A stretch of 64,000 nucleotides of DNA. Origin: Marsupella aquatica (Eukaryota; Plantae; Marchantiophyta). The stretch's first letter is position 1; every line of letters starts with the position of its first letter. A program made the position numbers and the translations under genes. Of the stretch, positions 2,015 to 38,858 are shown piece after piece. Where the stretch lies: the NCBI GenBank assembly GCA_973895155.1, contig OZ316893.1, positions 27,153,252 through 27,217,251 of the forward strand, given 5' to 3'. The notes beneath the pieces were generated by a model. It made no database searches. It saw only the letters and a list, made by a program, of their open reading frames with translations, and was not told the DNA's origin.

Positions 2015-4833
2015 AAATAGATAAACTCATGATCTACTTAATACCTGACAAAACAATGTGAGGCTCTTTGAAAAGCTTGAAAACTTCAAAACTCATGATC
2101 TCTTCAATGCTTGACAAAATCTGTCAATGTAGACTCATTGGAAAGCTAGACCAGCTAATACTGATGAAAAATCAGTGGATGAGTTATGGCTAGAGGTGAG
2201 ATACCTCTCAACCCCTGAGCTGTAGTTCACCCCTAAATGCGTTGAGACTCAACAATTGTTCAATTGTTCCCCTGTAGAAAACTGTAAACTATTACGATTT
2301 TATAATCACATAGCTTAAACAAAATTTATTTTTTGTATAATTTTTCCAGCCCTATATGATTTTTCAAGACACTGGTAAGGTATGATTCACCAGTAAAATA
2401 GATATTTCATAAAAAAAAGTTAATTTTTTGGAAAACACTTATTTTTTCAAAATTTCACTCAAAAACTTGTAATTTTTCTTGTAGTCACCTATTTCATTGG
2501 ATAAAAGAACCTAATGATTTAGACTCTTTGCATAGTTTGAGATCTTTAGAACAAAGTAATAGAAAAAGAGGAATATACAAAAATTCATGATGTCCTTAAT
2601 ACTTGACAATTTGCCAATGTAAGTCTCAATGAAAAGTTATTTCTTAGACGTGTCCAAGTCTCTAAACACAAAAGGTTTCATTTTGAGATGAGTGCAAAAA
2701 CTAATGTGAAATAGTTCTTGTTGAGGACAAAGCTAGCTCCTTGTGGAGCAATTGGATGAAGTACAAGCAAGGCCCACTGCCAAGGCCAAAGGATGTCCAC
2801 TTTTGCCATCTTTGTTGTGAAAATACTCATACATGGCTCCAACATGTGCAACACATACCACAAGAATTATAGACACTCATGGGTGGTCAGGTTCTTGCAT
2901 ACTTTTAGGATACAGCCTTTATTGTTATCATAATTTGAGTCAAAGCAGGAAGACTGGTAGTTTGGCTGAAGGAGAGAGTCAGGCCCTAGAGGCTGGTGCA
3001 CTCCGATGCCTTGTCTAAGTTGCAGATAATCTCCACCATGTTCATGACTTTATAGCAGCACCTATATACACCACTTAATTTCAGGAATGAGGGGCTCTTG
3101 GCCTGGGGAAGACAAAGAGCCTCCTAAGGGTGAGACACATGAGTCGGAACTCAGAATTTCTCCTAATTGCGGAGTGAATTGGATATTTAATTGCTTTGGG
3201 AGTCCAAAGTTCAGGAAGATTCCTAGGTCTCCAAAATGTCAAATCTTTGGGCATGATTATCTATTGCCTGACTCGATTAGACTAAATGAGAAGACTGTCG
3301 GGATCCAAAGGACATTGACACTATCTACTGAGAATGCACAAAGGAAATTGCAGCAAGAATCTTTTGCCTCTTAAAGCGCCACTGTAAAACCTGGTTACAC
3401 CAGGTTTCACCATTTTTAGTATACTTTTCTTGAAATTGTGGAGCAAAGTCTCATGCTAGAGGAGAGAAATGTGAAAAAGTGAAGAGTCTTGGACACTTCT
3501 CCTTTTATATGGACAGTGGTGGTTTAAGGAAGATGGAGGAAGATCTTAACCAAGAGCTTCACTGGGACAAGACGTTCTATACAATTTATTTTGGTGTGTG
3601 ACTGTCACAAACGGCCCCATGGTATGTTCAATGGCAGTAAAGCGTTGCAGCAAAATCTACTAGACCCGTGCTAGGCAAGATAATGTATGCTAAAGAGAAC
3701 CCAATGTTCAGTTTGAGTCAAGTAATGATTTGAGGTAAAAGGAAAAACAAAAAGTAAAACAAAAACTGTTCGCAAATAAATTTTTTATTAGCAATGCAAA
3801 TAGATTATTGTAAGTGAGGGAGCTAACAATGACAATTATCCTTTCAACAAATACAAATTGTACATTTAAGGTTGCAAAAATTGCAAATGATGTTGCTTCA
3901 TGTGAGTTAAAAATCTACTAATAATGTGAGCAAGTTTTTGCTTTTTTCTCATTTAGTTAAATACCTGGATCAATTTATTGAAAGTTCTTCTTGATTGATT
4001 TTGTATTCATATTGGGAGGCTGATTGGGATTAATGGAAGCACATGAAATGGACCATTTCTCTTCATTCAATGAGAGTGTATTGCTTCCACTTTTATTAAA
4101 TGAAGATTGACTGATACTTTTCTTTAAATTAAAACATTGCTATCCCTCTTCTATAAATTTTCAAATCACCAAAAAGTAAACTATTAAATAATCCATTAGA
4201 CTTATAATCAACATAAGCCATCAAAACATGGCTCGACGTGTCAAGAAAATATGCACCTTTACTAATTTGTGCATCATATGAAAAAGCCAACATATCGATC
4301 TGATGAGTTACTTATGTCATAGCAAAATTATGGTAGAAATATCACTGGCAACCTTGCTAACAATATTTAATATATCATGAATAAGAACCTGCATAAAAAT
4401 GCATATGTTTAGGCTATTAATCAAAGCATTCAATGTTGATCACAAATTTTTCCAAGGATGAAGGACCTAATTTTTTGTGATCCTACAACATTGAGTAATA
4501 ATAAAACTACTTTTTAAAGGAATTATCATTTTAGTATCATTTTAGCAACTATGCTAGCAATATTATTATTCCAAATCAACAAAACAACTTCCTGCCATTA
4601 TTGAGTAATTTTGTTAGCCATACTCCTACAAATATTGATCAATAGCCAAAATCAACATAAATTATAAACTAGCATTGAGTCATAACTCCTTTTCAGAGGC
4701 ATCATCACTCTATAGTGTCAGCAACCTAGGTAATTATGTTCATATTCAAAATGTTCAGCATAGACTGATCTATTGATATTTAGTGATGATCATTCCTTAA
4801 ATTCATTATTGTTTTATGATTATTATCATTGAC

Positions 4834-7800
4834 TGTGATGCCTAGCCAGGAATCACTAGGCCAGTTAAAATGGTAAAATCGGAAGTGTACCCTGAAAACA
4901 CCTTAGTATAGTAACAAAACAAGGACAATATAAACAATTAAGGGTAACTATGGAACCCAAGCCAAGGCCGGAAGTAAGAACGCCACGGCAGGGAACGCGA
5001 TTAGGTATGGGCGCGCTAAGTGCCGGCGGCTATGGGTAACCAACGGGAAGGGAGACCAGGCAAGGGGGGTAAGGACCGATCACAATGAATGGTGGCTCAT
5101 TTGTGAGCACAAACCAAGCAGACGATTACGAGAAGCCAACTGCTGTCAGTTGCTTAGGCACTATGGGCGGGAGTAGATACCGACTATCAACTCAAGGAGG
5201 GCATGAGCAACGTCAATCAAGCTGCTCATTTCTGGGGATGCCTGTTCGAACGGGCAACTGAGTACATTGGGACCTACGAGGACGAAGAATTAGAAAGGGC
5301 AGCTCGAGAACGGCAGGAGCTCGCTCGACTGTGGGAACTGCAAAAGTCTGCCTTCCTAGGAGGAGAACTTATCAAGGCCGAGTTCTTGTGGACTCAAACT
5401 GCCAATCAGCTCGACGACCTTCTGTTTTGTGAGAACAGAATCGTAGGCATTTGGGAAGCCATCAACCGTTGCAACGACATACATTGGGACCTAAAGGGTA
5501 GCATGAAGGTGTGGACAAAGGCAACCGTGCTTGGAGAAACATCCACAGCAGCCGCCATGAAGAGGAAAGGGTCCAACAACGAAGAGGCCACCCCCGCAAA
5601 GAGAACAAGGTCGGCAACACCAAAGAAGCCAGCCGAGCAAGGGAGGAGGAGGCAGGGGGAAGCTGAAGAAGAGGAGGTCGACCCAATCAATGTCGTTCCA
5701 ACGAGGGATGACACCTGGAGGGGTTGGGCGTCGACCCTCCCAGAGGAAGTGCAATTATACTTTGCATGAGAGGAGGATGCATGCTTTACGGCTATGCAGA
5801 CTCGGAAATACCAGGGCTTCATGGCCGGATCCGGCTTGGAAGCCTTCGTGAAATTACCATGGCTGAAGCCGGAGGTGCCGGATTCTGACTTATTAGAATT
5901 CGTGGGATCATGGGATTCCGAGACAATTCCACAAGGGTGTATGGGAAGGATTTTTATCTCACTTCCCAGGTGATTGCCGAAGTGTTTGGCTTGCCGATGG
6001 GCAATAAGACCAAAGTAGATACTCGGAAGACCTTGCCAGACAAGGAGTTCAGATCATTCCCAAGGCCATCGACAAAGAACGGCTTCTTCCGGAACATCTG
6101 CACCAGCCCGCACATTGGTGAGATGATCGATTTCTTGCGGGTAACCATGCCTGCAACTTGCCGAGGCCAGAGATTGGCAAGGCACAGGTCTACCTAGCGG
6201 AGAGGTCAGACCCAAGTCGGGACTCCAACGGGTACCTCCTCACCCAACTAAAAAAGATCTTGAAGGAGGAACAACAGGTGATCGGTCATGGAAGCGTATC
6301 TGGGCTTGGCTATCACATACCGTTGTTGTGCCGGTATGCCTGGAGTCAGATTTTTGCCCCAGTACTTCCCCTACAGGCAAGGGCACCAGAAGAGGTTCGG
6401 AACAGAGGCCGGCAGCAGAGAAACCCAACCAGCCCGACAGTCCTACGATCGAGCAAGTGTTTAGGCCGAGGACGGAAAACTTGTCGATGCAGCAACCAGG
6501 CATGCAGAATCTTCTGAAATTGCTGGAGAAGGAAAAGAAGGCTACGACGGCGACGGCAACGGCACCGGTACAGGACACTGCTCAAGAGGCAGGCCTAAAG
6601 CGACTCACAAGGGAAAACCCCTTTACCAAAGCCAAGGAAAGAAGGAGGCCGGAACACGAGCCGGGGGTTTGGATGTATGTGGAAGCCGCGAGTCCAAAAA
6701 CCAATGGAGAGCAACCCAAAGCTCCTGGTCGCGATGAAGAGAAGGAGAGGACAACCTGGAAGCTGGAGGAGGAACCAGGACCCGTGAGCTGTGTTCGGCA
6801 AGAGGCCGTGTTCACAGCAAGACCAGGAGAGCAACGGGGGGAGCCGGTAGTCCAAGCCGAGGAGGAGGTGGTGGAGGACTATGGCAATGACGACTCCGGC
6901 TACGGGTCAAACCATCATGTCCCAGGAGTGAGGACATGTGGCCGCTTCATCCCCACGCTTCCTAGAGTAGTTCGAGGAGACCCCAACCACCAGAGGTTGC
7001 TCCCCCGAGATTTGACGGGATAAAACAGACGGCACAAGAGTTGCAAGAGCAACTCAGGGAAGAAGAGGAGGCAGCCCTGGCCAAGGAGAAGGATTTACCT
7101 TGGGGAGAATGGCCAGAGGACATCCGGCGGCTTGCAGAAAAATGAAGCAGCCCTCCACCCACGTTAGAAGAGGTCCGAAAGGCGGCTTGGGAACAAAGGC
7201 CGCGGTGGGTGATGTCGATGACTACTACCCACTCCACATATGCGCAAGACAGAGCCATGGAGTACGGGGAGATGTGTGGGGAACTTGCGCTCAGCATCTT
7301 TGGGGAGGAGTTGGAGCAAGGACCTTTTTTCCAGAGAGAGATGTTGGAAAAAAGCCGATTGGAGGAAGCGGTGGCTTTGGAAAGGATGAAGAAGGACGAG
7401 GTCATCCGATGGCTTAGGGAGAAGGAAGCCGAGGCAGAGGACCTGAAGGCGGCCAAGAAAGCCCAAGATGAGCTACGGATTAAGCGACATGAGCTCAACA
7501 TCATGCAGGGGAAACTGGATACCGCTTAGTCTGATAATCAGATTATCAAAGATAAACTGACTCAGACTCAAGGGGAGTTGGCCGACGCGGTCAAGGAGAA
7601 GGAGAGGGCGCCAAAGAGGGAGCTCGAGGATCTCCGTAGAGCCCTTGAGCAGAAGGAGGCCAAGTTAGGGACATGTTATCAAGGGATTATTGTGCTACAA
7701 CAGGAGCTTGCATCCTTGACGGCCAGCTTGAAGGCCGACATGCGTGAGAAGGATGATATGCTCGATCAGACTTACGCCAAGATGAACCAGATGGAGTTTG

Positions 7801-9428
7801 AGGTCGTCCGAGAGCTCGACAAGGAACTGAGAGCAACCCAGGAAGAGAGGGCTGCCTTGCAGAAGGAATTGGAGGAAGTGCAGAAAGAGCTAGAGAAGGT
7901 GCGCGGGGACCTGGACAGAACGCTGGAAGAGTTGGAGGAAAGCACGCGGAAGCTGGAGAACTTACAACGGCGAGCCGACAACCAAACGAAGCGGCTGAAG
8001 AAACAAGCCGCAATATTTAAGTGCTTGGCCTCATCAGTTCAAGCTCCAGTTGTGGCAACAAGGTTGCTAGGGGTAGTACTAGCCGAGGGACAAGCCGCGG
8101 CACTCGCACCGGTGCCGGAGGTAGGTGGCAAGGGGAAGGGACCAGCTGCCAAACCAGGGAAGAAAAAGAAGCGGAAACCTTCTGGGTCATGGAGCAGCGC
8201 GGCTTCTCAAGCCACCATGACCAAGGAGGAGAACACGGCACCAACCTCAGGCAAGGTCATGGCATAGGATTCAATTGTCCTAGAAGGCGGGGATGGCAAG
8301 GCCGAGGCCGGGACGATCGTTGATGAAGCCAGGGTAGCGGATCCATCACTAGAGCAGGCCAAAGCTGAGACCAAAGCCGAGGGTGGACCCGGTCAGGCCA
8401 CGGGAGAGTTGACTCGGTCTGGGGCACGTAATCTGTCAGAAGACGGACCTACGGTAGTGGCTACGGAGGAAACATTGGGGGCGTCTGGCATTGAGGATCA
8501 GCCACCGCTACCATGACGGTGGTGGAGGGCCGCTCCTTTTAAGGAGGGAGGACATGGAGGGAGGAGGCGTGAGTGGGCAGGGCGAGCACAAATCTCCAAG
8601 TTTAGAATTAGGATCAGGACCAAGAGACGGCCCTAACACTTAGATTAGTGGGATTGCGGATCCGCTGGTAATAGCAACACTTGTGCTCTTGCCTCGCTGT
8701 ACATAGGTAGATTATAAATATGATAGATTAGGCTTACGCTGCAAGGAATTAGGAGGATCCACTGCCAGGATAAGTACCTGGGCAGCGGGGAGTTTTGGGC
8801 CTTTTTCTTTAGCAATTTTTTAGTGCACCAGCAGAGCTGGGATCAAGTAGTAAAAGAAGCTCTCGATTAGTTATCGGGTTAGTTATACAGTGACCCTTGT
8901 GTATATTCATGTTTCCTCATGCCTAAGAGATGAATAGAGTTGGCCTCACGGCTTAGTTCGCAAATCTTGTGTATGAGAAGTACTGTTTGTATGGCAAGTG
9001 CATGGTATAACTCAGTCAGAAGGAGTCATTTTGCTATTTGTGTGTCGTATTAACTTGTTTGAAGATTGCCCACATCACCCAAGAGAGAAGGGAAGTAAGC
9101 AAGGTAGTAAGAGTTGGATGTGTCGAGCTGAGAGAGGTCTTAGCGGCTAACCCAAGCCAATTGGGGATCATTCCGGCGGTGGAATCCAAACATACCTAAA
9201 GGGAGACCAGGAGAGGAAGACAAAGGAAGGCATAGATTAGGCCGGCTACTTATCTCATGACCCGATGAAGGATCTGTCCAGTATATGTGTGTAAAATGTT
9301 AGTAGAAGAGAGTTAGCAGTGTCCCATGCCGATAAGCCGCGGAACCGGCCTTGCCGAGAGATGAAACCTACGGGAATTGGCTTGTGCAAGGGGGTTCTTG
9401 GGTTTAGGGAGCCATGGGACGCACCACA
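4834..9428 (+). mobile_element. Element A: 4.6-kb solo-LTR-like unit with TG...CA termini carrying a decayed protein-coding gene
   Basis: Starts TGTGATGC and ends GCACCACA (7/8 inverted match). Flanks are TTGAC (4829-4833) and CTGAC (9429-9433), a 5-bp TSD with 1 mismatch. GC content shifts abruptly against the AT-rich flanks. No RT, integrase or transposase motifs. Confidence 0.8.
5203..8516 (+). pseudogene. Element A ORF: PMD/plant-transposon-protein-like domain, low-complexity linker and long coiled coil (stops and frameshifts)
   Basis: Reading through TGA at 5767 gives GLEAFVKLPW...LLEFVGSWDSET, then after a frameshift NSTRVYGKDFYLTSQVIAEVFGLPMG...KNGFF. ORFs 7209 and 7578 are in the same frame, separated by a TAG, and are heptad/EK-rich. 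The protein is similar to the element B ORF. Confidence 0.65.
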
Positions 9429-10578
9429 CTGACCAAGTTAACAATATTGACAATCACAATTTACATAAAAATCTTTCACAAACATTGAATTACTATCACT
9501 TTTTAAAGGTACTGCCCTTTATTGTTAGTGACCTCTTTGACACTATTGACATTTCATCAAAAATGTATCTCTTGTGAAGTCTCTAACAATCAATTGAGTC
9601 AACTTTGAGAATCAGAGTTCAAAACTTTATGTTGTCAATATTAGCAACATATTTGACAACAAAAACAACCAATCTAACAATCATATCTTATTTTCTCAAG
9701 GGTTTGTTAGATTATTGAGATTAGAGTCACAAGCCCTAATATTTGAAAATTCAGTTAGCTAGTCCCATGTATGAAGCAAATGTAGTTCACGTGAAAATCC
9801 ATCTTTCATTAGCCACTTGTATATCGTCAATAATATGATTGTCTAACTCATATTTGAGCCCTTGTTACTTGTGAACTTGTAAAATGTATGTGCACTAGTC
9901 AGCCTAGGGTCCAGAATAGTGTCATATGGACCATGCATTAATTAATAATTGCAGTTCCTCTCTAGCTTACCAATCCAGACACTCAACTTTTTGGTGGTCG
10001 CTATTCGTGCTCTGTGATTGTTGCTTCGTGCCCAGTGATGTTTCGGCATTTGGACTTGATTTTGGCATTAGAGTTAGCTGCTTGGACTTTTTGAGGTTTT
10101 GGGCCTTGCTGCTCTATGCTCAGTTCGGTGCTCGGCATCACTACTTACTGTGGCGTCACTACTTACTGCTTGGTTTTTTCAGTTTGTGCTGCTCTTGGCT
10201 GCAGCTGCTCTGTGCTCCCTCTCTCGTGGCTGTTGTGCATATGGTCACTCTGGGTGTTTTGGCCCAGGTGCTGCTCTCACTCTCTGGTGGTGGCGCTCGT
10301 GCACTCATGGTGCTGCTCTTGCTGGTTGTGCCTCGGTTGCCTGTGCTCTTCATTTATTGCCCCCGGCTGTGCTCTCATTGCTGAACTGTTTTCAGTGTCA
10401 GCTGTGCTGTGGTGCTATCAGTTCAGCCTCAGCTGTGTGTTCGACAATGAGATGGACTATGCAAAGTGGGAGACAAACAACTCTGACTTCTGATAAAGTG
10501 GTGTGGTGGCCAGGAAAGCGGGCATATGGTTGTCCAATGTGTGGCAGAAGGTGGCATCCTATCTATACTAGCCCAATA

Positions 10579-10945
10579 CCTGTGTGTTGCACAAAAAAAT
10601 GTTGAGGTGAGAAAAGATATCGAGGTGAGAAAAAGATGTTGCGATGAAATAAAATGCCCATCAGAGAAAAATTATGGAGGTGAGGAAAAGAGGTCAAAGT
10701 GAGAAAAATAGGGCGATGAGGGAAAAGATGGTGAGGTGAGAAAAACATGTAAAGATGAGGAAAAGATGTTGAGGAGAGAAAAGATATTGAGGTTGAGGGA
10801 ATGATGTTGTGGTAAGAGGAAGATGCCAAAGTCAAAAAAACATAAGATGTCAAGGTGACACAAATTATCAAGGAGAGAAAAAATGCCAAGGGTGAGAAAA
10901 AATGTCAAGTGAGAATAAAATATAGTGGTAAGATAAAGATGTCAA
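10579..10945. repeat. Degenerate minisatellite with a roughly 20-bp unit (GAGGTGAGAAAAAGATGT-like), dispersed family
   Basis: Many GAGGTGAG/AAAAGATGT units. The head CCTGTGTGTTGCACAAAA recurs as CCTGTGCGTTGCACAAAA at about 58266. Confidence 0.8.
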
Positions 10946-11217
10946 ATTAGTTCACACTTTTTTATTAAGGATAGGGTATTATAGTGGTAAAAAATAATAG
11001 AGGGAGTAACACTTCATGTAGGGATGGCTTACTATGCATGGATGGTACCAAAAGGACTCTAGTTGACAGCCCACTTTTTTTGCTTGGAAAAGAGCACCAC
11101 CTTTTCCCTTCACACTAAATGTAATTAAATTTTTGTCTATTCCTTCTCTTTGTCAGCCCCTGCAAATGCAAATGACCATCACTCTATAAAACAGCAGGGC
11201 GTTGTATTATAGTTCTT

Positions 11218-11650
11218 GATAACTAATCTTGATGAAAAGCTAATCCTTATGAAAAGCTGGAATTGGGGTCTACTGTAGGTGTTTAGAGTGAAACCTCTAG
11301 ACACACCTCTAGACACTACTATCTATATAACTAATCTTGATGAGAAACTAAAGTGAAAGCTTCTAGAGTGAAACCTCATATAAGATAATCTTGATGAGAA
11401 ACAAAAGTGAAAGTTTCTAGAGTGAAGCCTCTAGACAAAGACTCTAGGGGCCATCCAAATTTATGCAGATGGAAAAATAGAAAGATGTCATATATGTCAA
11501 ATTGATATCATGCATGATGAGTTTTTATCATGATTTTTTTTGACATGATAAATTATATGCATCAAAATGATGATCATATTTTTGACATGATAAATTATAT
11601 GCATCAAAATGATGATCATATTGACATGAGATATTATGTATGTCAAAATG
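11218..11650. repeat. Cluster of short imperfect direct repeats
   Basis: TAATCTTGATGA(G)AA and TAGAGTGAAACCTCTAGACA recur three or more times. A 43-bp unit TTTTGACATGATAAATTATATGCATCAAAATGATGATCATATT occurs twice at about 11538-11622. Confidence 0.75.
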
Positions 11651-12917
11651 CTCGTGTCAATAGAGGTGAAGATCTTAATTTAGGGGTAGGAGAATCTCTA
11701 TAATCAATTGTAATTTATTCATGATTCATGATCGCGGTTCTTTGTAGATATACTTCAAGTAGATATGATCCATAAGGCTTTTGAATAAATAATCAATAGT
11801 CACTGCTCCATTGTGGAAAGTGAAACGATCTTGCAAGGGGGGCTCGATCCGCTCATTTGTTTCATCGCCTCTCGAAGTGCAGCGTGCAGCTATTTATGAC
11901 ATTTTGAGTAAGCAATGAAGAGTATGATTTAGTATAGATGTTAAATGAATTTTAAAACATTCACGAAGATGTATTGGTCAGATTGCAAAAGCTGTTGCCT
12001 CAAGGTTTTCATATGTTGGGTTGGACCAAACGGATGAAATACCGAAAAATGTCAATACTACTGACCGATTAGATGGCGCTTGCAGCTGTTTGCCATGTTG
12101 CCTCTCCTGAGGCACATCACAATATCATTCCACTATGACAGCAATGAAATTCCATACCTAGCCAGAAGTTTGAAGTAACATGGTGGGGTAGGGTTAAACC
12201 CTAAACCCCAAACTCTTGCATAAGAAACTGGACCACCAGGCTTTGAAAAGCTCCAGGCGCATACTTATGACATTGAGACAGTACGTACCCTTAGTGCTTG
12301 AATCACACATCTTCAGATTCTTTGCCAATTACAACGTGAGGGGACTAGGAGGGCGAATCGAAAATACTCTAAAACTAAAACGTTTCCCACACTTGAGCCT
12401 TCACAAGAAACACTAATCTCGATTTCGTAGTAACTGTCTTAAACTTATTACGAGACATATCGAAAAATTGTTCAATGGCGAAGGTTTCAGTAATGCTAGT
12501 CCCGCACCATTCTGAACACCAACAGAACATATATCAGGATTAGTTAGTTGGCCCGAGTACTGTTTACCAGCTGTACAATTCAGTTTTAAAGATGAAAGAA
12601 ATAATATCCCCACGAATGCATCCATCAGAATGTTCTGAGAAGGCAGTTGGGCAGCACATCACTTCCGCATCAGCTCCAAATACAAGAAGGGAAAGTAACT
12701 GCAGTTTTATCAAAGTTGACTAAGCAACGGTGATTACCTTGAAAAACATGAAGTTTATTTGGTGTGCCCATCCCAGAACTCGATCGTTGACACGCTAAAC
12801 AGTGAGAGCAATTGTGGCTTGTACCAACTTCTCCAGACTTTGCAGTACACAAAATCTCACTTCTGTCAAAAGATCAGAAGGCCCATAAACTCGTACCCGG
12901 AATTTTTCAGAAATCTT

Positions 12918-14911
12918 TTACGTAGCCGCAGCTACCTCTGGAACCTTTTGAGGCTTTCTATTCAGGTAACGAATGACAGCATCCTCCACCCTGCACAAAA
13001 AGGATTCCGACCATGACATGAATGTTACAACTCAAACGCAATCAGCTGATAAACAACACGAGAGAAAACGAGCTAATTGTAAAACGGCAGTCTCATTCAT
13101 TCACAAGGGAGAAGTAGAAATGATGAGAGGTCATATCGACCACAACTTTTCAGCAACTATACACTTGACCGGACCGACTAGGAAACTAGTGTAGTCCTCT
13201 GTAAATTCCCTTAAGGTCTAACAAACGATGAATTAATGCCCGGGAAAGCTGCGGCAAGGACTTGCTTCCACGAACAGACACAGCATTGAATTGACGTGAT
13301 TTTAGATCCAACTGACTGTAATGGGCCAGGAGACACACACAGTGTGGCAGCGGTTAATAGAGAAACCAAAAGCCAACCCTGAAGTACCAACGGAGAGAGA
13401 AGAAGAGGATACCAAGGTTGATTGTAAAAGTCGGAGCGGCGCTCCTTTTCAGCATTCCGGCTCCCTTGACCGGCAACCATCTTGAGATCCCGGCTTTGAG
13501 ACGCAATGAGTCCGTTGATGAAATCAACTGGGGAGTGACTGAAGCCCAGGAAGAAGGCTCGTCGCTTCCGATGCTCGTTTATCTTGGCAATGGAACTACA
13601 TATGGACTCGTCGTACATGTCGATGTCACGGTGCTTCTCGACATTCTGCAGAAATGCGTTCATTTCTTTTTGAAGGGGGGCAGGGATGTCGACCTGGACG
13701 TCATAGCACGCATTGCCGACAGGCATCTTACCAGACAATTTGACGGTGTGCTCAAGCACTATCGGTGGAGGGGGTGACAAATGGTGATGGAGCTTCTGCG
13801 AAACGAATGAAAACTTTATCCTGTCTTCGCCTAAGATTTTGTGGAGAGTAGGATCACAATTGATGATCGTAGGATCCGACGGGTTCTGCAGCTTCTTGGC
13901 TTTGATATATTGCCACAGAGCTGCGATAATTCTGGGCCTCGTATCCACTTCAATACCCAGCATCTCAGACAGAGATGCAGAAAGTTTGTACCTCTCCGGT
14001 GAGTAGTTCATTTCAAGCCGGATGTAGACCTTGAACTCTTGGTCCCCTTTCCTCTTTATCTCGAACCCTTCCACGTGTGACTGTGCCCTTGCCACATCCC
14101 AGACTATGGTCTGATTGTCTGGATACAAATTGCGATCTAGTTGGAATGTAATTCTTTTGAAAAACGACGAGAACTTGGGGGTATTCGATGGCTGGAGAAG
14201 CTGCTGCTGCGGCTGCTGAATTGCCGCTCCATGGAGCGCTTCCGACTCTGCGTCGTCCTCCAGAATCTTGCCCATGATACGGAGAGTCCAAGATGGTGGG
14301 TCCGCCATGTATTGTTGCAAATGCTGGGCTTGCTGGGCGGACATCTCCTTGTGGATTTGATTGTTGTAGGTGTTGAAAACATATATCCGCAGAGTCTTTA
14401 ACAGCCGAGCTGGCGCACGAACAGCATCCTGAATGTCGAGCTTTTTCCTTTGCAAGGCTGCGTCCACCCTTTTCTCGAACTCCAGCAGCTGCGTGTACAG
14501 AGCTGACTCGGGGAGCAGCGCTGCAACCCTGTCCGGTATCTGCTTCTCGGGTGCCTTTCGCTTCTTTCTGCGGGCCGATGGGGCGGCTTCACCGATCTTG
14601 TATGAAGAGCCTCCAACTCCACCGATACTCCCACCACCACTTCCTCCTCCTCCTCCTCCTCCGGAATTTGGTACTGGCCTCCCTCTCCCTCGCTTCCCCA
14701 CTCCGCCTCCTCCACTTCCTCCTCCACTTCCAGGAGTACCTATACTAGCTGCCACTGCTGCGGCTCCTACAGCACTAGGCCCTCCCGCTCCAATCGCTCC
14801 TCCCGGTCCCCCACCTGCTGGGCTCATAAACTGTGCTCCCACGCCATCCCCTCTTCCCCCTCCTATTACACCACCTCCTCCAGGTCCACTACCTCCCCCT
14901 CCTCCTTGCAT
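12918..14911 (-). CDS. SWP73: SWI/SNF complex subunit SWP73/BAF60 (SWIB/MDM2 domain); exons 14911-13413 and 12990-12918
   Basis: Contains LPESALYTQLLEFE...LRIYVFNT, the SWIB core DTRPRIIAALWQYIK..KLQ and RRAFFLGFS.SP..FI. A TG|GT donor at 13413 splices to cag|G at 12990, giving QPWVEDAVIRYLNRK...*. Confidence 0.95.
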
Positions 14912-24157: not shown

Positions 24158-24673
24158 CTGACACGTTATATTTGAGGTAAGTGACGGTAATTAGGGTGTG
24201 TGACACTAATATAGTATGACACTCATTCTGGTCACAATACAAATAGTGTCACATACACTTAAGTTAAAAAATATATAATGAACAATTCTAGTCAAAATTT
24301 GCTTATATTTTTTTTTTTAATATGCACAATATTTAATTATAGTTTACAAAATTTACTACTCAAACATTGAGAAAACTTCAGAAACTGATAATTCCTTCCA
24401 TATACTACCCAAACATTGAGCAAACTTCAAAAATTTATAACTCCTTCTCACATAACACAAAATTGCAGTTCGGGTATTCACCCACACCGAGCAAACAAGA
24501 TTTGTTTGATTCATTTCTATCAACTACAAATAACATATGCTATCTCACATAAGCTACAAACTAACATCCTTTTTACTCTCTTATAACCTGTCCCTTGTGT
24601 CTCATCCTTGCAAGACGGCATATAGCCCCAAGAGAAGCGGGTTGAGTTGGCTCTTCACCTGGTTCACCAACAT

Positions 24674-24899
24674 CAAGGAATCCACGTTACACAAGCGGAG
24701 CTCACAGCCACCATAGCCACACTCGAGCTTCTCTCTCTCCAAGGCTCAACATCAAAAGATGACCTTTTGATGCCTCATAAGGGAGAACTACTCTCCCACA
24801 CAAACCTAATGGAACCCTATCGGCTCCAATAGCACACATACAAAATGTACATACTCAACTAGCACTATATACTACAACAACATCTAGAATGGTGTGACA
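24674..24899 (-). mobile_element. LTR fragment related to the DNMT-Gypsy LTR, inverted orientation
   Basis: The reverse complement TGTCACACCATTCTAG...AAAGGTCATCTTT...GTGGCTATGGTGGCT.TGAGCTCCGCTTGTGTAACGTG.ATTCCTTGA aligns to 31866-32090. Confidence 0.8.
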
Positions 24900-25666
24900 G
24901 GCAGCCTTGCCTCACTCCCCTTTCCAACTGAATGGGTTCTGTTCACCCGACTTTTGTGTTCCGCTTTAGCCTCTTCCCTAGTTCTGTCCTCAATCCTGCC
25001 AAGCTCGCCTAACTGAGACTTAGATGGATTATCCCCCAACTCAGTTCTAAGCTGGTTTGGCGCATCCCTAGATGCACAATGTTCCTATTTGTCGCTCTCT
25101 TTTGCTTCTCCCCAATAAATATCACTTCTATAAATCATAGCAGGCTCAGCACCAAGCCCTGCAAAATGCCTTTGTCACCTATGACCTGACCGGAAGTAGG
25201 ATCCTTGTAACCCACACGGAGAGCCTAGCAATATACACACTAGTACAATTTTCAATCACTCATTTTTTGCGACTCCTTAGCAATGTTAATTGGGGAGTTC
25301 AAGGTTGTCCATGCACCTTGTAAGTGGATGTGCTGCAAACATCCCATCATAAGTAAAAGGGCTTGTCCACTATCCAAGTTGAATGTCTTAGTGCTAAGTT
25401 ACATTAGGTGCCCCTTCATGTCCACCATGATGACATTGAGCCACGTTCAAACCTCACATGTCTTCCCCTTGCCAAATGTGATAGCCCCTTACATGTGTGA
25501 CACACCAAGTCACCACTGCCCCTTCCCAAAGCTAAAGAGCCCCTTAGATGTGACACATTCAGGACTAATTGTACACTGCCTAACATTCACTAGACCATGT
25601 ACCAATCGATTAGGCCTTATGAGCGAGAAGAATGAAAAGGGAATGGATGGGGTATGACATGCATGA

Positions 25667-26115: not shown

Positions 26116-27340
26116 CGCATGGTCTGTAACTTTGTGTCTTTCATGGGCAAAGGTTTAGGGTGCTACTTCATTGCAACAACATTGGAGCGACCAAGGTTGT
26201 GAGCGTTTAAGGAAGTGGGTGTGACCAAGGCTGTTTGAGCTGCGATGCTTGAGCGCCAATTCTTGTTCAGTCTCATTCGTGCTAGTTCTTGTTCAGTCTC
26301 ATTCTTGCTAGTTCTCGTTCAGTCTTGTTCATTGAGAGTTGTAACGCATTGTTCTTTCTTGGGCGGAGGTGTGTTGCAATACTAGAGCGGGCGACATTGG
26401 ATGGTCTTGACTCTTCTCAACTGAAGTGCGGGGTTTAGGGTGTCAACTCCTCTCAACTGATCTTTGGGCGGTGGGGGGTGCGGCTGGTGTTGACTCATCG
26501 GTGTGAGAGTCCCATGCAATGCTGTGTGGTGCTTCATTGTGCTTCATAGTGTCTCTTTGGCACTTCAGGTAGGACTATAAGTGCCATCGTAAGTACTTTG
26601 AATTCTCACTGTTATTGTAAAGGGCAACATCGCTCCTCTTGCGATGATCCCCAGCCCCCTAAGCACTTTAGGGCTTTTCTGTAAGGCCAACCTCTTTATA
26701 TGCTTCCCATCCTCTGAGGATGATTGAATGTTGGTTCAGTAGAATAGGCTCATAGTTTGGCTCTCTTGCTCAATTATCTCCTTGTTGTCACTTGCTCTTT
26801 GTGTCTCTCTCCAATTTGTTTATACTTTGTTTGTTCATCTTAACTCTCCATCTTCTCTCTCCTGCTCAATGCTTTCCTCAGCTCTGTTGGTCTCTCTGCC
26901 TCTCCTCTCTTCAAGAGTTCACTATTTGGTCGTCCTATTCTCCTCTCTTGCTCAATTCTCTCCTTTCTCTCTCTCGCTCTGTGTGTCTCACTCCGTCTTG
27001 CTCTTCCATCGTCTCCGCTCTCCATTGTCCTCTCTCTTGCACAATTCTCTCTCTCGCTCCTCAAGTACAAAAATCTCTCCCTCTCGTATGCATGCCCATT
27101 GATCACTATAGCAATCTCAGGTCGGGCCGGGATCGAACTTGGATTTCACTATGGAAGTGTAGATGGGATCATAGTATATTGTTGGCGCTTACATTCTACT
27201 TTGGTTGTGAAGCTTCAATTGCTCTAATGCTATACACTAGTATTCTAGTCTATGGAAGTGTTGTGCAAACTAAGGTGGGGTGCGGGGGGTTTTTCTTTGC
27301 CTCTAGTGAGCTGCAATTTCAATTGTAGAGTGCTTATTTT

Positions 27341-28252
27341 CTTCAGGCAGAAATTCCTGTGCGTCGTTATTTGTATGTGGAGACAGATGAGACAGCACGG
27401 AGGGTCTCATTGCGACATGTGGCTATGTTGGTGGATAGATATCCACAATTGCTGCTAGTGGATGTTGTTTGTGGTTATCAGCATGCACTACCTGTTGATA
27501 TTTCATTGTTGGGGGCGGATCATCTACATCGTGTTGGCCCCATTGATTTGGTGATTGCTGGTTGACCATGTCAGGGCCAATCTAGAGCTGGCGTTGGGCA
27601 TGGACTTCATGATCCACGCTCTGCATTATTTTGGGAGATGTTATGGGTGCTGCGTCATCTCTAGCTACATCAGACACAGTCTCCAACATACATTTTGGAG
27701 AATGTGCCATTGTTAGGTGATGATCGTAGTCGGATTGTTGCCAGTGTTCACCAGGTGAGGTCTTGGATTGGACCTGCTATGTTATTGGATACTACATGTG
27801 TGGATTCTCGTGCACATCGTCCACGCTTGTGGTGGACTAATTTGATCCCATGTGAGGTGCTGAAGCGCGCATTTGACAGCATTCCACGCTCACCCGCCTT
27901 AGTGGTGGATGCTATTTTGGATCTAGGGCGTCGTGCATAGGGTGTGACCCAACCTGATAGACCTCCATTGGCAATGGTCAATGCAGTTGGGCGCCCACGT
28001 TGTGCATTACCCACTCTTGTAAGCCACTCTACTTCATATGCATTCAGAGCAGGTGGCCCTGGACTTGTGTGGGACACAGCTCTCCAGCAGTTAGTGGAAC
28101 CTACTGCTGATGAGAGAGAGCGTGCTATGGGATTTTTGACTGGCACCACTGTAGTTGCCTCTGTGTCAGAGGGTTTGCGGCGCCAGGTTCTTGGTCAAGC
28201 AATGGATCTGAATTGTTTGACTTGGATTATCAGCTTGGGAGTAGCTGAATAG
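27341..28252 (+). pseudogene. DNMT3-like C5 cytosine methyltransferase domain of the Gypsy polyprotein (motif I lost, in-frame stops)
   Basis: One frame contains motif II YLYVE, motif IV DLVIAG*PCQGQSRAG...GLHDPRSALF, motif VI YILENV, motif VIII AHRPRLWWTNL, motif IX ERERAMGF and motif X RRQVLGQAMD. ORFs 27359, 27695, 27944 and the RT-proximal ORF 28508 all share this frame. Confidence 0.9.
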
Positions 28253-31200: not shown

Positions 31201-31412
31201 ATTTGCAGCAGACAGCACCCACAACACTTGATGTGACCGCAGGCCAGACAATCTTACGTGTCCGTGAAGTGTTGCCTTCTGGTGTCTTGATGTTGGAGGG
31301 ACGCGATGGTATGGTTTGGAAGGATCATGTGCGCAATTGTGCACCATGTCACCTTCCCAACATTGATGGTACAGTAGAGCCAAGCTTGGCACATGTTCGT
31401 GTTGGCTTGAAA

Positions 31413-31549
31413 TGTATATTGTGTGGATTTGCTCAGGGAGCAGCTACTATGTTGATTTGTGATAAGTGTTCTTGAGGATGGCACATGTCGTGTTTGACAC
31501 CACCATGCAGGTGATTCCTAGTGGATCATGGTTGTGTCCTCAGTGTCGG
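31413..31549 (+). pseudogene. PHD finger at the integrase C-terminus
   Basis: CILCGFAQGAATMLICDKCS*GWHMSCLTPP, then after a frameshift IPSGSWLCPQC: a C4HC3 pattern with the conserved Trp. Confidence 0.85.
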
Positions 31550-31727
31550 TGAAGCCGACTAGTTATCATTTGTGTTCTCTTGGCAGATATGGATTGCAGG
31601 TAGGTGATCAATGGGGCTCACTTGCACCCGGCCCCCTGATCTTCACACCTAAAAAGGTGTATATCAACCTTGTAGAACTCACGGCTAGCTAGAGTTAGGG
31701 GACCTTACTCCCAGCTAGGGGGGCAAT

Positions 31728-32334: not shown

Positions 32335-32857
32335 TCCATATAGTGAGACCCCTAAGTGTTTTCCCTAGCTCTTTTGGCTTCCACCATGGCAAACAAGAAT
32401 TTTGATGGCTCATCCCCCTATCCAAGCTAATTAATCCTAGCAATACTCTTATTATGATGAGCTTCTTCTAGTTCCCTTTCTCTTACATTCTGTGACGTCG
32501 CCGGTACGGTGGCTAATAAATGATTCGGCCTAACCACGCTTAACACGCGCAGTAGAGGTATCTTAGGCCGTAATTATTAGCATAACGACAGTATTTAGGT
32601 AGCCATTATGAGTAGAAAATCATTAGTCAATAAGGGGCATTCATGTTCGGGCTGGTGGCGGGTTGCCATTCGCATGCCCGGGTTGCGAGCGTGTAATGGG
32701 CCCTCCCCTTTCCCCCTCGGGTCTGTATAACAAACTTTGGGAGGTGGCCACTGACACGCGCTGACCCAGACTGGTGGAGTGGCCGGTACACTGCAAGCGT
32801 GAAAGGCTCGGCATATAAGCGATGAGGAAGCGACGGGCGATCAATGAGCTCTCAGGG

Positions 32858-32870
32858 TATAAAAAGGGGG
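32858..32870 (+). promoter_or_regulatory. Candidate TATA box of element B
   Basis: TATAAAAAGGGGG about 370 bp inside the left end, followed by a CT-rich leader and an ATG at 32996. Confidence 0.5.
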
Positions 32871-32995
32871 TCGATCCTTTGCAGTGCACCAATTCTTCAG
32901 TCCACGCGCCAGCTTCGACCCTAGTTCTCTCGCTTATCTTTAGTCGCCTTCCATCTCCTTTGAATGTCGCACACGATCCTTTCCAGTTTGGCCAT

Positions 32996-35642
32996 ATGAT
33001 TCTGGACGCAGTTCCTGTCTATTGGAGGGCACTTGGCCGACTCGTTGAAACACGCCAACCCGTGACAATACGAGATTGAACGCGAGTACAAGAGAGCCAT
33101 CCGCCTAGCAGGCCTCCATCACTATCTCCTTAACTTTGATTACCCGTCCCAGAGCGAGCTTTACCAACCCGAAGAAATATCAGGGTACTTCTTCAACGGA
33201 GGCAAATATATCGGCTTCTGGGAGACATTGCTTTGGCTCCCGGACAAGGTCTTCAATATCCCGGGCACGATCGACTTACAACGGCACCACTTTGACCATA
33301 TCCCCGCTCGGGTCCAAGACATCATCAACAGCAAGTCCAGTGCTACCCGATCTACAAGGGCGTCTACACTTGCATCAGAAAACCTCTACCGGCACCTACA
33401 AAATTTCATGGCAACTACACCATCGATCACCGGTGCCAGCCCAGCCATGCTCGTACCCGCACCAGTCCAGGCTCAGGCTCAGTCTCAGCCTCAACCTCAA
33501 CCTCAACCTAGCCGATCCCCACCGCCGGTCGCCCCGCCAGTACAAGTACACTTCGTCGTCAACGTTGTGGACCTCAACGACGATGAAGACGATACCTTGC
33601 CCCTGCTCAGGCAGCCTAGAGGAGCAAGCACCCAGGGAGCCGGCACTACATTGGCCCTTCCCCAGACCCGGACTCGAGTAGCAGCTCCAGCGGATAACAC
33701 GGTGACCGTAGCCTCCCCGGCCCCAATACTAACGGCGGTGGCACTACCCATACCCGATTGGGAGGATGGGGAGGTGTCACCCTCCCCAAGCCATCACGGG
33801 AGCCAATCTCGGGGAAAGAAGAGGAAGGAACCCGCAGCTGTATCCGGGCTACCCATGGCCACGGTAGCCGCGGCCAAGGTAACAATGCACCGCATGGGGG
33901 AAAACGTGCATAAGAACATCCTCCACCCAAACATGCGGTGTACTTGAAGACTCGGGGGTTCGAGCACCTCGCCTCTCTCCCCTGGAACACCTACAGATAC
34001 TATAGGGAGGACATGACAAAGTTCATCAAGAATTATGACGACGTCCGTCAACATACTCGGCTGCGGGGAAGGAATATGTCCCTCATAGAGGAGCGGCTCA
34101 AGATGATCTTTGGGCTACCCGAGGGCGATCACCGAGTCGAATCACGGGCTCTCGGGGGCAAGGGAGCCAAGTACCAATCATTGAGTTTTCCCTCTGAGGG
34201 GTCAGTGGACAACGGGTTCGTGATGAGGACCTGCCTCATCCTCGAGATAGCTGAGCGGCTGGAGTTCCAGAGGTATGCCCTCCACATGATGGAACCCCGG
34301 GGCGAGATCTCCGCTGCCCAGGTTATCTAGGTTGAGACCTATCAACCTAGGAAGTGGGCTTTGTACTTCGCTAAGAAGTTCCATGAAGAGATGGAGCGGA
34401 AAAGGAAGTCGCTATACATCGGCAGGAAGACGTATTTCGCGAGCCACATCGAGATCATTCTCGAGTGGTACACCCGGTTTGATCAACAAACCCTTCCCCA
34501 GGTCAACGTAACTAAGTTGGTCCCGACTAAGTGGATCTTCCCGGCCTTGGAGAGACGGCCTCAACCCGAGGCCCAAAGTTTGGCGGCAACGCAAGCCCCA
34601 CCCATCCAACCTCCACAGGTAGCGATAGTCATGGCCGAAGAAGTACCAGAAGAGGCAGTGATCGCAACCTTAGACGCGATCAACCAGGTCAGGCCTGGTG
34701 CAGAAGTCGGGGCGGTGGAGGCCTTGCCCGAGCCTGAGGGTCCAGAAGACCCACTAGTGGCTATTCCACAGGACAGGCCGATGGTGGAGGAGGACACTCC
34801 AACCCCTTCCAACACTACATCCCCAGGGCTGGATGTCACTACCCCGGCTCCCACGCGAGTTAACGTCTGCCCGTGCCCAACTCCAGACGGGCATAACCTG
34901 GACCACTCGGAACTCTTCGTACCGGGTACATTTCTAAATGGGCTTTTGGGAGATTTCTCCCAACAAATAGCCTGGGATACCGAGGAGTCCATGGCTCGGA
35001 AGGTAGCCTACTTCTTCAATCAAGAGTTGGTTACCGCAGTAAAGGCAGATCAGGCTCAATCGGAGGCCCTTCAGCGGATAGAGCGGTACTGGGTTGAGTC
35101 CGTGTACCTAAAGGATGAAGTTGCGGCTCAAGAGGCGGAGCTTCTGCAACTACGACCCAAGGTTGCAGCCGCCGATGAGTTGTTAGCAAATGCGCATGCC
35201 CTTACCGCCTTAGCCGAATAGGCCAAAGCCGGGAAGGAGGCCAAGATTGCACGGCTTCGGACCCAGGTTGACGTACAATTTGAAGAACCAAACTGTCATC
35301 TGGCACAAAGACCTAGAGGAGGCCAAAGAGCGGGCCCAGCGTGACACTGCAGAGATTGCCACTTTGCAGGCCGAAGTGGCATGGCTTCAAGCCGAAGCCG
35401 AGAAACAGACCCAGGTGGTGGATAAGCTGAAGAGCAACGCCCAGCAACTGGAAGAGGCATACCAGGAGGCAGCTGAGGAGACGGACGCGGCAAAGCAAGA
35501 AAATGAATCTCTGCTGGACCAAGTCCAGCTCCTCAAGGCGGCAACGATAGACTCCGTAGGCAACGGGATGGCTGCTCCCACTCGGACGGCTCTGGCAAGC
35601 GCACCAGATATTAGCGGAGGGTTAGGCTTAAAATACACTTAG
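32996..35642 (+). pseudogene. Element B ORF: N-terminal domain, Pro/Gln-rich linker, PMD/plant-transposon-protein-like domain and coiled coil
   Basis: GFEHLASLPW...MTKFIKNYDDVRQHTRLRGRNMSLIEERLKMIFGLPEG...DNGF...EISAAQV parallels element A (LPW...FGLP.G...NGF...EIGKAQV). The C-terminal heptad-rich region spans about 35050-35540. Confidence 0.7.
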
Positions 35643-38600
35643 GAGTAGCTAAAACAGGCTGGTAGGACAAGTGCCGGCCAAAAGATAGCGGCGCTGACAC
35701 ATTAGCCAGCCTGTGTAGAATAGGTTAGACTAATAGGACAAGCAGGCACCAGCTTAGCAAGGATATAAGTTAGCGTAGATTCTGGCACGAGGCCAGATCG
35801 GTCCTCAGCCCTTAGTATTTTGCGGCCCCCCAGTAGAGGTTAGGGAAGGGGAATTTTAGACTCAGAGGTTGGCCATTCGCAGTACGCGCGGGGAGTCCCA
35901 AACTCGGTGAAGTATCGGAGTGCCAAGAGGAGGGTATACGACTAAGCTCGTTGGGCAAGTGCGGAGCTGGGCTCCGTTGTAGTGTATACTCCTTGGCCTT
36001 GGGCCCGTTCGTTCATGAGGTGTCGGGTCAACCAATCGTAAAGTGTATGATCATAAATGAATGAAATCCTTTCTCCTTAATTCCTTCGTGTAAATCAAGA
36101 TTTTTGTTATGTATGAATGCATGTATGAGTCTCGTGTGCAAGTATCAACGTCGGGCCGAACACGTTATGCCAACCGTGCACGGGGTGCCGGATACGGGTA
36201 TGGGGTTGCGAGCCCGGGTTGAGCCCTTGTACTAATGGATCCGGATCGAAGGCGATAACATGAAGGCTTAGAAGTCTGTGAGCCGGGATCGACCCCATGT
36301 CGACTAAGGTACGTTCCGGCAGCGGAACACAAACTATACCTAGGAGGTGTCTATACATAATAGTAAGCGCACTTAGCGCTAGTTTACGTGAGTTAGGAGC
36401 ATTCTATGCGTCCCTCCCTACCCGAACCCTCATATTTATGAAAATTGTGCCTGTCTAAGCCAAAGCCCGGGGTAAGGCCTAGGCAGACGACGTGACACAT
36501 TTTGTTCAGTGAGGTGAAATCTTGAATTGTGTCTTCAAAATAATCTTCCATGATAGCAATCTTCAAAAGAAAAAGTTTAGTCCTTAGCCTAATCATCTCT
36601 TCATCCTAGGGTACCGGGGAGTATTGGAGTTCCATGTAGCACCGTCAAAGTCTTTGGACAACATCTGCAAATCTCAAATGAGGATCAATCGATCCACCAC
36701 TTCCAACTTTCCAAGCTTCTGGCAATGAATTGATATTTGCTTTGTTCCTAAGAATAGCCAAGTTTGCCTTGAAGTAGTTAGCTCTACGTACATCTATAGC
36801 AGTAGTGCTTCAAGGAGTCATCCAAAAGAGATAATGATAGGTCCATGATCCGATAGAGCTGAGGATCCATCGTGTTTGAGGTCCATCACCTCCGCCATCC
36901 ATTGCCCCTTTTCACTTAGGTAAAAGCAGTCTAATCGGGACTGAACCAATTTGCCATTTCTTACCATTCGCCATGTGAAATGTGATCCGGTAACCTGTCC
37001 CAAAATTTTTGGGCATCTTGTAAGTTGAATCATAGTTTTGGTAAATGCCAAATGTCTAGCTTCCTTCCACGAATTTTGGGAAATAGGCTAGTAGAATCTT
37101 CTTGTTTTTCCGTCATATTAAAGTCACCACTTATTATTCATTTCCCCTGGGTAAAGTGTTCAGCAAATCATTCCACAATAGGGTACGTTCACTCATTGAG
37201 TTAGGTGCATAGATGCTAATCAATCCATATATTTCATTATCTGATTGTAATGTAATCCAAACATCTTGTTCTTTATCTAGAATGTGTTAGACTCTACCCA
37301 TTGACCGGACCAACCGGTCACCCGGCACACCTATATGTACCATGACCCTACTCATTCTATTGACAGTTACTATTCATTATCCTATCATACGTTATCAGCA
37401 CGACTCACCCAGCTTAGAGCACAGGAGAGCGAAAAGCTATGGCAGGAGAGAGAAGAGAAATACCAATGACAGAAAAAAGGGAGCACCGAGCCAGGTCCGT
37501 CAAAGTTGGCTCACCAAGGAGATGTCCAGTTTTTATCCTCCGACAATGAATTTCAGGAACTGAGGAAGGTGAATTAAGATTGAGGTGACTGGATTAAATT
37601 CATTATGAAGATTCAAAGCAATTTGTTACAATCACGGACTCTCCACTGTCCAACTCGAGATTCGGTTATCCAGGGCGATGTACAAAGAGTTTGCTGGTGA
37701 AATGAGAAATCTACAACAAAGTTATCATTCTACCGCATATGGAGAGTCACCAATGGACAGACTCTTTCAATCAGACTGCAGACCATCAGAAGACGATTCC
37801 TCCCAAGAACCAATCAATCAAACAGAAGAAACGATCAATCAATCGAGTTTGAGAGCAAATCGAGTTTGTAAGCAATTGAGAAGTAGACTCAAAACATAGA
37901 AGAAGTAGACCTATTGAAACAAGAACCAGAGAACGCGGCTCAGATGGACGAAGATACGCAAATAGAGAGGAAATTGACCACTCAAGCAAAATTGAACCAG
38001 ATATCCGGATGACATTGAGCTTTTCCTCATCGGAGTGTAGCTCGTGAGATCAACAATTGATAAGGACATAGAGAACACAAAGAACAAGAGAGCAGAAAAG
38101 AAAGGATCGGTTAGACAAGGGATCCGAGGCTGCTTGATGAGAAGGATCCCTATGCATATTTCGTTGTTGAAAAGGGCTGCATGAACAAAACTTGAGATCT
38201 TGTCGAAGAAGACTGAGAGAAATAGAAGCAGATAGGAAGCAAATTGCAAATAGAAGCACAAAAAGCAAGTTGAAGAATCGAAGGAGAGCCAATTGACCGA
38301 GATTCGAAACAACACCTGAAGGACGAGGTAAGGAGGCGAGAACGGGGCTGTTCGAAGGGAAAGAACAACATTGCTGAACACCCATTGACAAAATGTCGAG
38401 ATAAAGCCCCTAACCACTTCACCCTCCTTAAGTGCAAATTTCAACAAGGCAATCTTGTTTTCCGTGTATTCATGTGCACTTAACAACTTAAGTGCATCCC
38501 TTCATAACTGCACACCATAAAAAGGAAACTTAACTTACAAAGCCGCACGTGCACTTAACCAGGGTATGAGTAACTAATCACCCATAATTGCACAAACTGA

Positions 38601-38858
38601 AAAAATCCATTACTGCACAATATAACAAAGGAAACAACACATACAAAGAAAACTTTGCAATTAACCAAATAACAAGGAAAACCTAAATCCTAAGTGCAAA
38701 CCCTAAAACTGAATTCCAAATTTGCATGCTCTCTGCACCAAGTCCCACTTTGCATGCCGCATAAATGTGCTTTGTCGACTTTTACTTATGGCTATTACTC
38801 TATAAGCCCTAATTACTATCAAAAACGAGCTTAGAAAATAGTGCCATAGCAACCCTAA

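Follow-up and report, generated by a model that had tools for sequence, protein, structure and literature searches.

A high-copy TG...CA unit of the liverwort Marsupella aquatica, likely a solo long terminal repeat, carries a decayed gene with a predicted VANC/PMD-like core

Target-site duplications (TSDs) of 5 bp accompany 93.4% of plant long terminal repeat (LTR) elements, in which LTRs can reach about 5 kb, and the combination of a domain with an SMC-like coil is typical of accessory open reading frames (ORFs) in Ogre, Retand and Athila (PMC6317226 and its supplement 2; like most papers below, cited from excerpts). The role of such accessory ORFs is given as unknown (PMC7264820). In rice Retrosat2, LTRs are longer than 3.2 kb and solo LTRs outnumber full copies (PMC3485330). 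Here, we characterize element A, a unit of 4,595 bp in a stretch of 64,000 nucleotides (the window) from Marsupella aquatica, assembly GCA_973895155.1, contig OZ316893.1, forward-strand positions 27,153,252 to 27,217,251. We regard A as the likely solo LTR of a retrotransposon, and the core domain of its gene very likely has a VANC/PMD-like fold, as judged from a modelled homologue. This predicted fold is the main addition to the initial annotation, which had been made from the sequence without database searches.

VANC proteins bind 9-base motifs repeated in the non-coding parts of their own element and remove methylation (PMC5735166). They resemble the host protein MAIN, and in the excerpted account they are called dicot-specific (PMC13547354). 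The PMD domain of MAIL1 resembles the DUF1985 domain of VANC, and MAIL1 and MAIL2 act against Polycomb (bioRxiv 2024.09.27.615353). PMD proteins have been surveyed in angiosperms, where one clade resides on gypsy elements (PMC5418596).

Both the TG...CA ends of A at 4834 and 9428 and a 5-bp TSD with one transition had been noted in the initial annotation, and inspection of the sequence confirmed them. The termini are TGTGATGCC at 4834 and GCACCACA at 9428, with an imperfect terminal inverted repeat (TIR) of about 9 bp, beyond which no internal direct or inverted terminal repeat could be found in A. This signature alone is not beyond chance: with at most one TSD mismatch and a terminal match of at least 7/8, the window contains 59 TG...CA pairs with a TSD, compared to 30-44 in five shuffles. 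The borders are considered real because read depth steps there, and not because of the signature. GC content also changes at the borders, from 0.28 to 0.51 on entering A at the left and from 0.48 to 0.32 on leaving it at the right.

To assess depth, contigs of four public runs were aligned at 80% likeness and summed over bins. In run X1, depth is mostly 1.7e5-6e5 per bin inside A, compared to about 80 in the flanks, and the same step at A is present in runs X3, X5 and X6. At the right border, consecutive 5-bp bins of X1 hold 457,000 (9425-9429), 7,500, 450 and 137, and the drop is alike in X2, X4 and X6 at the same resolution; in agreement with the initial annotation, copies do not extend past 9428. 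The left border is resolved by depth to a 257-bp bin only. The ratio of depth inside A to that in the flanks is 6,900-13,800 raw, or 220-440 after correction for a 31-fold count of each position; these values bound the copy number of the A family and do not equal it, and they place the family size in the hundreds to thousands. Divergence from A is about 10-20%, chiefly by transitions, in the longest contigs aligned to it.

The flanks of A are single-copy by depth, and no paralogue of them exists within the window. An empty site was not seen, as none of the 15 joints shown (of 324) skips A. The junction 9401-9470 is present without difference in contigs of X1, X2 and X4, which represent two studies and two species labels, one of the latter possibly being the source of the window. 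In X1 and X3, examined over positions 3300-11000, joints from 8213 to 4830 and from 9429 to 6945 were observed at 2-5 times single-copy depth, and these are A-family copies nested in other A-family copies.

About three quarters of A is occupied by its gene. The initial annotation had described one long ORF, which turned out to be a pseudogene: from an ATG at 5203 to a final stop at 8514 it comprises five frame segments of together 1,095 codons, interrupted by frameshifts near 5935, 6155, 6397 and 6985 and internal stops at 5767, 7143, 7527 and 8265. In the read-through frames no open stretch reaches 300 codons, and the gene can be read without introns. A is a dead copy. At the stop at 8265 most aligned copies differ from A, showing that the break there is not family-wide. 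The annotated trailer of about 900 bp agrees with the 912 bp found in A, and a leader of about 370 bp, proposed for both A and a second unit in the window (element B), applies to A (369 bp) and not to B (~505 bp).

No gag, protease, reverse transcriptase (RT) or integrase motifs were detected in the A gene. Pfam and NCBIfam searches returned nothing but weak coiled-coil matches, numerous and all below curated cut-offs, and there was no Rfam match in window positions 1-40,000. The A protein has no transmembrane segment (highest 19-residue hydropathy 1.54, at most 1.13 in the core), and on this feature the gene was rejected as an env-like ORF of plant LTR elements.

Element B carries a homologous decayed gene, and a third TG...CA unit, element C, contains a decayed core domain. 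As stated in the initial annotation, no similarity exists between A and B at the DNA level (best blastn E 0.19), and neither leaders nor trailers align beyond shuffles. The protein motifs it had reported as shared were substantiated by alignment of read-through translations, with X at breaks: the core domains give a Smith-Waterman score of 135, compared to a shuffle maximum of 58 (0/2000), and a tblastn E of 2e-12, with 25% identity over 183 aa. The helix preceding the coil aligns as well (0/1000 shuffles) and the coil weakly (1/1000), while direct alignment of the N-termini is not significant (78/1000 shuffles). The cores of B and C match with E 1.3e-9 (36% over 64 aa).

Run depth is high at C too, in bin 3300-3556. 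This unit is without the coil and trailer, has a TATA box 59 bp from its start, and is probably internally deleted. An inverted near copy of its right-end sequence, matching at 12/13 bases, is located 76 bp inward from its left end. TATA-like boxes are located 716 bp from the right end of A and 734 bp from that of B (TATAAG), on the + strand only, with none on the minus strand of either element; these positions are expected if the gene fills the U3 region of an LTR.

Running a 3-row A/B profile through a full HMMER search yielded 20 hits, from which P0004 (an insect repeat protein) and P0018 (an ankyrin protein) were dropped as repeat-driven. Six of the 18 remaining homologue clusters carry the name of the liverwort Calypogeia fissa. 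Intact homologues, 906 and 787 aa long, are composed of an N-terminal domain, a linker, the core, another linker and a coiled coil. Matches to the window were obtained with 30 of 35 homologue sequences and fall only in A (14), B (27) or C (2), with 11 sequences matching both A and B; because the homologues were found with the A/B profile, these matches are bridging and not an independent discovery. Homologue P0022 matches C with E 4e-12. Homologue P0002 aligns with A in three colinear pieces (36-41% identity over 226 residues, E 3.4e-31), which confirms the reading frames of the A core.

A profile of the 18 homologue cores, run on 1,301 segments, detects pieces of A with E 1e-17, 2e-11 and 4e-5. 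On the same segments, a profile of three homologue N-termini detects B with E 5e-5 and A with E 0.067, and this weak match suggests that the N-terminal domain of A is probably homologous to that of B and of the full-length homologues. Word-indexed protein searches disclosed no relative, and none was found by peptide patterns in viral and metagenome scans. Scanning viral contigs with the terminal DNA pattern revealed no relative, the PDB gave no match by sequence, and a motif-pattern scan of collections retrieved 1 + 10 loci, all attributable to chance. Calypogeia fissa homologues P0017 and P0039-P0041 come from one contig, in pairs with adjacent accessions (CAM6101869/70 and CAM6101879/80). 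The pairs are near-identical and about ten gene numbers apart, a pattern expected from two LTRs of one element.

The initial annotation had suggested an old, abundant class with conserved architecture and not a one-off rearrangement. Abundance is evident from the high run depth across A and, together with the third unit C and the intact homologues with the same domain order, shows that A is not a one-off rearrangement. Abundance and recurrence of the class are thus upheld, whereas its age is not shown by the A-B protein divergence alone, because LTR accessory ORFs are highly divergent in general (PMC6317226).

To obtain a fold, homologue P0002 was modelled with a 27-row alignment; a fold from an earlier 3-row alignment was unusable, with a predicted local distance difference test score (pLDDT) of 42. 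The best P0002 model has a mean pLDDT of 69.8, with the core mostly at 70-93. Among 48,161 solved chains, the only one with Z >=5 is VANC21 bound to DNA (9LNK), with Z 9.8 and a root-mean-square deviation of 3.6 Å over 216 residues at 10% identity; the next chain has Z 3.7, and re-alignment of P0002 with VANC21 gave Z 10.1. Viral structures did not match the model. In the Atlas, homologue P0013 has unnamed streptophyte clusters as neighbours, joined at 0.88 by clusters containing DUF1985 (13% of members) and PMD (20%), considered here as a lead only.

VANC21, encoded by VANDAL21 Mutator-like transposons of Arabidopsis (PDB 9LNK/9LNJ), is like the A family in the predicted core fold, in being transposon-borne and in having a coiled coil (PMC5735166, PMC13547354). 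It differs in the low identity of the core, in the dicot-specific distribution ascribed to VANC, and in its target array, for which no counterpart was found in A or B. A was rejected as a VANDAL/Mutator element, as it has no long TIR, no 9-bp TSD and no transposase. Lacking Mutator context, a Pfam match and a target array, the A gene is not VANC by membership, but on the predicted fold it likely works like one. The host PMD proteins MAIN, MAIL1 and MAIL2 belong to the same fold group by the published PMD-DUF1985 similarity, with which the PMD-containing Atlas cluster agrees; they are host genes known from the angiosperm survey, whereas the A family has no PF10536 match (PMC5418596; bioRxiv 2024.09.27.615353).

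Regarding the unit itself, the TG...CA ends, together with the short imperfect repeat and the 5-bp duplication, are as expected from a retroviral-type integrase. Solo LTRs of Retrosat2, RIRE3 and RIRE8 share with A the TG...CA ends, an imperfect inverted repeat of ~10 bp, multi-kb length, high copy number and an extra ORF in the family, and the LTR ends of rice Retrosat2/RIRE8, TGTCACACCC...GGGCGTGACA, resemble those of B; in these rice families, however, ORF0 lies upstream of gag-pol, while in A the whole gene of ~1,100 codons is inside the unit (PMC3485330). Like the A gene, the extra ORFs found in Ogre, Retand and Athila (PMD PF10536, Transposase_28 PF04195, ATHILA ORF-1 PF03078, SMC-like coils) encode a single globular domain together with low-complexity linkers and a coiled coil (PMC6317226, PMC7264820, PMC11963269). 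They also have no transmembrane stretch and are equipped with their own promoter, as the A gene may be. In contrast to the A gene, which is inside the unit and without a Pfam match, they occupy internal positions, usually between pol and the 3' LTR (PMC7264820, PMC11963269).

The excerpted accounts report Retand in flowering plants only (PMC6317226, PMC7264820, PMC11963269), and the excerpted parts of a Physcomitrium transposable element study contain nothing like the design of A (PMC7466625). Our literature search, which did not cover the VANC21 structure paper, the 2022 EMBO J VANC survey and REXdb files 1 and 3, found no account of an LTR-internal VANC/PMD-fold gene in bryophytes. A was also rejected as a complete or non-autonomous two-LTR element of the types LARD (large retrotransposon derivative), TRIM (terminal-repeat retrotransposon in miniature) or TR-GAG (terminal-repeat retrotransposon with GAG domain), as there are no two direct terminal repeats within the unit; comparison of its first 600 with its last 1000 bp scores 26, and the shuffle maximum is 29.

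As the best overall explanation, which we favour by a small measure, A is a decayed solo LTR from a high-copy family, and the VANC21-like product of its gene would shield its own family from silencing. A retroviral-type integrase would have inserted the parent element, generating the observed 5-bp duplication, and recombination between two LTRs of 4.6 kb would have removed gag-pol and left a single LTR. The gene would be situated in an expanded U3, with its own promoter in the leader, and would end at the poly(A) region of the LTR. Being within U3, it would be copied into both LTRs in every round and would persist in every solo LTR.

A comparable arrangement is found in mouse mammary tumour virus, where the superantigen is encoded by a complete accessory gene in U3 that is duplicated with the LTR. 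This is an animal retrovirus, unlike A in that its gene product is an unrelated membrane protein and its LTR is much shorter. The A protein, which in order comprises the N-terminal domain, the predicted VANC/PMD-like core and the coiled coil, would oligomerise and bind DNA in the nucleus. The copy in A decayed afterwards. Since the predicted core fold is VANC21-like, intact copies would likely encode a DNA-binding protein that shields its own family from host silencing. Provided that the fold is of the VANC/PMD type, an anti-silencing function appears slightly better than an even prospect.

Several observations weigh against this interpretation. The modelled protein is homologue P0002 and not A itself, and the other four of five models have pLDDT of 42-56. 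Z values below about 13 can reflect an arrangement common in helical proteins, and in Foldseek VANC21 ranks first (probability 0.82, template modelling score 0.37) with an E of 0.087 that is not significant. No match to Pfam PMD (PF10536), DUF1985, ATHILA (PF03078) or Transposase_28 (PF04195), nor any sequence match to DUF1985/DUF287, was found in window pieces or 23 distinct homologues. Unlike in VANDAL, no repeated short motif was found in the leaders and trailers of A and B (12 tests, best 3/40 shuffles), a comparison of low power on single decayed copies. Among the listed coding variants of A, the share at third positions (14/27, P 0.036) speaks for a real gene, but 11/27 are synonymous compared to 7.2 expected (P 0.08, not significant); because 27 of ~1,870 sites are involved, this signal is a hint only. 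Basic patches do not prove nuclear import. Regarding the element, no two-LTR parent of A, primer-binding site or polypurine tract was seen in the window and the public-run contigs. Finally, contigs continuing past 9428 enter mutually unrelated flanks, with agreement of 0.36-0.39 (45, 30, 16 and 13 contigs). In simulation, this rules out a shared continuation in at least 30% of crossing contigs; identical continuations collapse and the test is largely blind to them. Because shared continuations collapse into few contigs, it cannot rule out full-length elements.

The unrelated continuations are also compatible with A, B and C being self-standing non-autonomous units without a two-LTR parent, moved as DNA by an integrase-like enzyme that is supplied in trans and reads TG...CA, with the VANC-like gene as their sole cargo. 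In the window the domain occurs three times, each time in a single unit with its own TSD and no adjoining gag-pol, and the differing sizes of the units (4.6, 4.0 and 0.9 kb) are like those of deletion derivatives. DNA transposons related to integrases can have TG...CA ends, and GingerRoot is present in bryophytes; however, GingerRoot has inverted repeats of 100-150 bp and a 6-bp TSD, and Ginger a TSD of 4 or 6 bp, compared to about 9 bp and 5 bp in A (PMC6839031, excerpted). On TIR and TSD length, A was rejected as a Ginger/GingerRoot DNA transposon. No Pfam match or motif of a DDE integrase-like transposase was found in A, which is still compatible with a non-autonomous member of these groups. 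Solo LTRs, on the other hand, form readily from long LTRs, and we consider self-standing units unlikely. Of the two, a retrotransposon's solo LTR is the more likely identity of A.

With A as a solo LTR bearing a VANC/PMD-fold accessory gene, the function may still be another one, such as control of element transcription, guidance of integration, or a particle scaffold built through the coiled coil. A fold can be shared without proof of function, the VANC-type target array is absent from A and B, and no role has been assigned to plant accessory ORFs (PMC7264820); moreover, host PMD proteins MAIN and MAIL1 were first described as needed for silencing (PMC5418596). Against this, in each of the two branches of the fold that have been tested, VANC (PMC5735166) and MAIL1/MAIL2 in relation to Polycomb (bioRxiv 2024.09.27.615353), the proteins target chromatin at short DNA motifs and counteract silencing, and we give such alternative functions about one chance in several. 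If A were a captured host gene, or a pseudogene flanked by TG...CA by chance, and had no conserved mobile architecture, this would agree with the broken ORF and with the frequency of TG...CA and TSD pairs by chance, but this reading is contradicted by depth about a thousandfold over the flanks with a base-sharp right end, and with three independent units, single-copy flanks and a gene readable without introns it is highly improbable.

Table 1. Coordinates of elements A, B and C and of the parts of A in the window
Feature	Position	Strand	Basis
Element A, TG...CA unit, 4,595 bp, likely solo LTR	4834..9428	+	ends, TSD, depth borders, GC steps
Left TSD copy of A, TTGAC	4829..4833	+	sequence inspection
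Right TSD copy of A, CTGAC, one transition relative to left copy	9429..9433	+	
Leader of A, 369 bp, putative promoter of accessory gene	4834..5202	+	TATAAA at 4929 only; function putative
Decayed gene of A, ~1,095 codons, 4 frameshifts, 4 internal stops	5203..8516	+	read-through frames, codon-position bias
N-terminal helical domain of A	5203..5560	+	weak profile match
Conserved core domain of ~185 residues, predicted VANC21/PMD-like fold	5686..6355	+	homology; fold from homologue P0002
Helical and coiled-coil region, then basic KKKKRK patch at 8160	7146..8264	+	weak coiled-coil family matches
Trailer of A, 912 bp, TATAAATA at 8713	8517..9428	+	putative end of U3, R and U5
Element B, TSD CATTC/CATTT, 4,007 bp, with a decayed homologue of the A gene	32491..36497	+	
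Element C, 919-bp TG...CA unit, exact TSD AGACG, decayed core domain	2651..3569	-	

The land-plant DNA of the window bears genes (a SWIB-domain gene and a TENA/THI-4 gene) along with a gypsy element and a copia element. The decayed gypsy polyprotein (~27300-31600, +) includes a cytosine-methyltransferase-like segment ahead of RT, with motifs at 27545 and 27698, and its integrase is followed by a PHD-like cysteine pattern. Pieces of the terminal repeat of this gypsy element lie at 24673-24900 and 31726-32331; one copy, 7 kb upstream, is inverted, and a 138-bp stretch is directly duplicated (98%). B is inserted just downstream. The copia element (~37284-43869, +) contains gag, integrase and RT; a 97-bp repeat (94%) marks both LTR starts, with a purine tract before the second.

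At ~1284-2010, two direct repeats of ~300 bp (85-90%), about 100 bp apart, resemble a TRIM; a GAGAA microsatellite is longer in the second of them. A degenerate 19-bp tandem repeat, multi-copy in the runs, is present at 10594-10940 and 58280-59215, 47 kb apart. Just before the first array, overlapping open frames at 9920-10605 (+) are strongly G/T-rich (GC 0.5), with single-copy depth up to 10495.

Solo LTRs are usually regarded as non-coding scars, and most of the scar represented by A is a large gene. The copy in A is dead, and its value is that of a second and third family in which the design is conserved. Tentatively, and depending on the modelled fold, liverwort retrotransposons might carry a complete VANC-fold anti-silencing gene in each LTR, so that every solo LTR could stay transcribed as a trans-acting counter-silencing gene once the remainder of the element is gone; the fold would have been a transposon weapon before flowering plants, with at least three diverged families (A, B and C) having each evolved a version of their own. 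In the excerpted published accounts, VANC is placed in dicot Mutator elements and the PMD survey concerns angiosperms (PMC13547354, PMC5418596). If true, the proposed scenario would place the origin of the transposon-borne VANC-like fold nearer to the base of land plants. It would also bear on the question of whether host PMD genes derive from transposons or the reverse, and would allow a direct test of retrotransposon-encoded anti-silencing factors.

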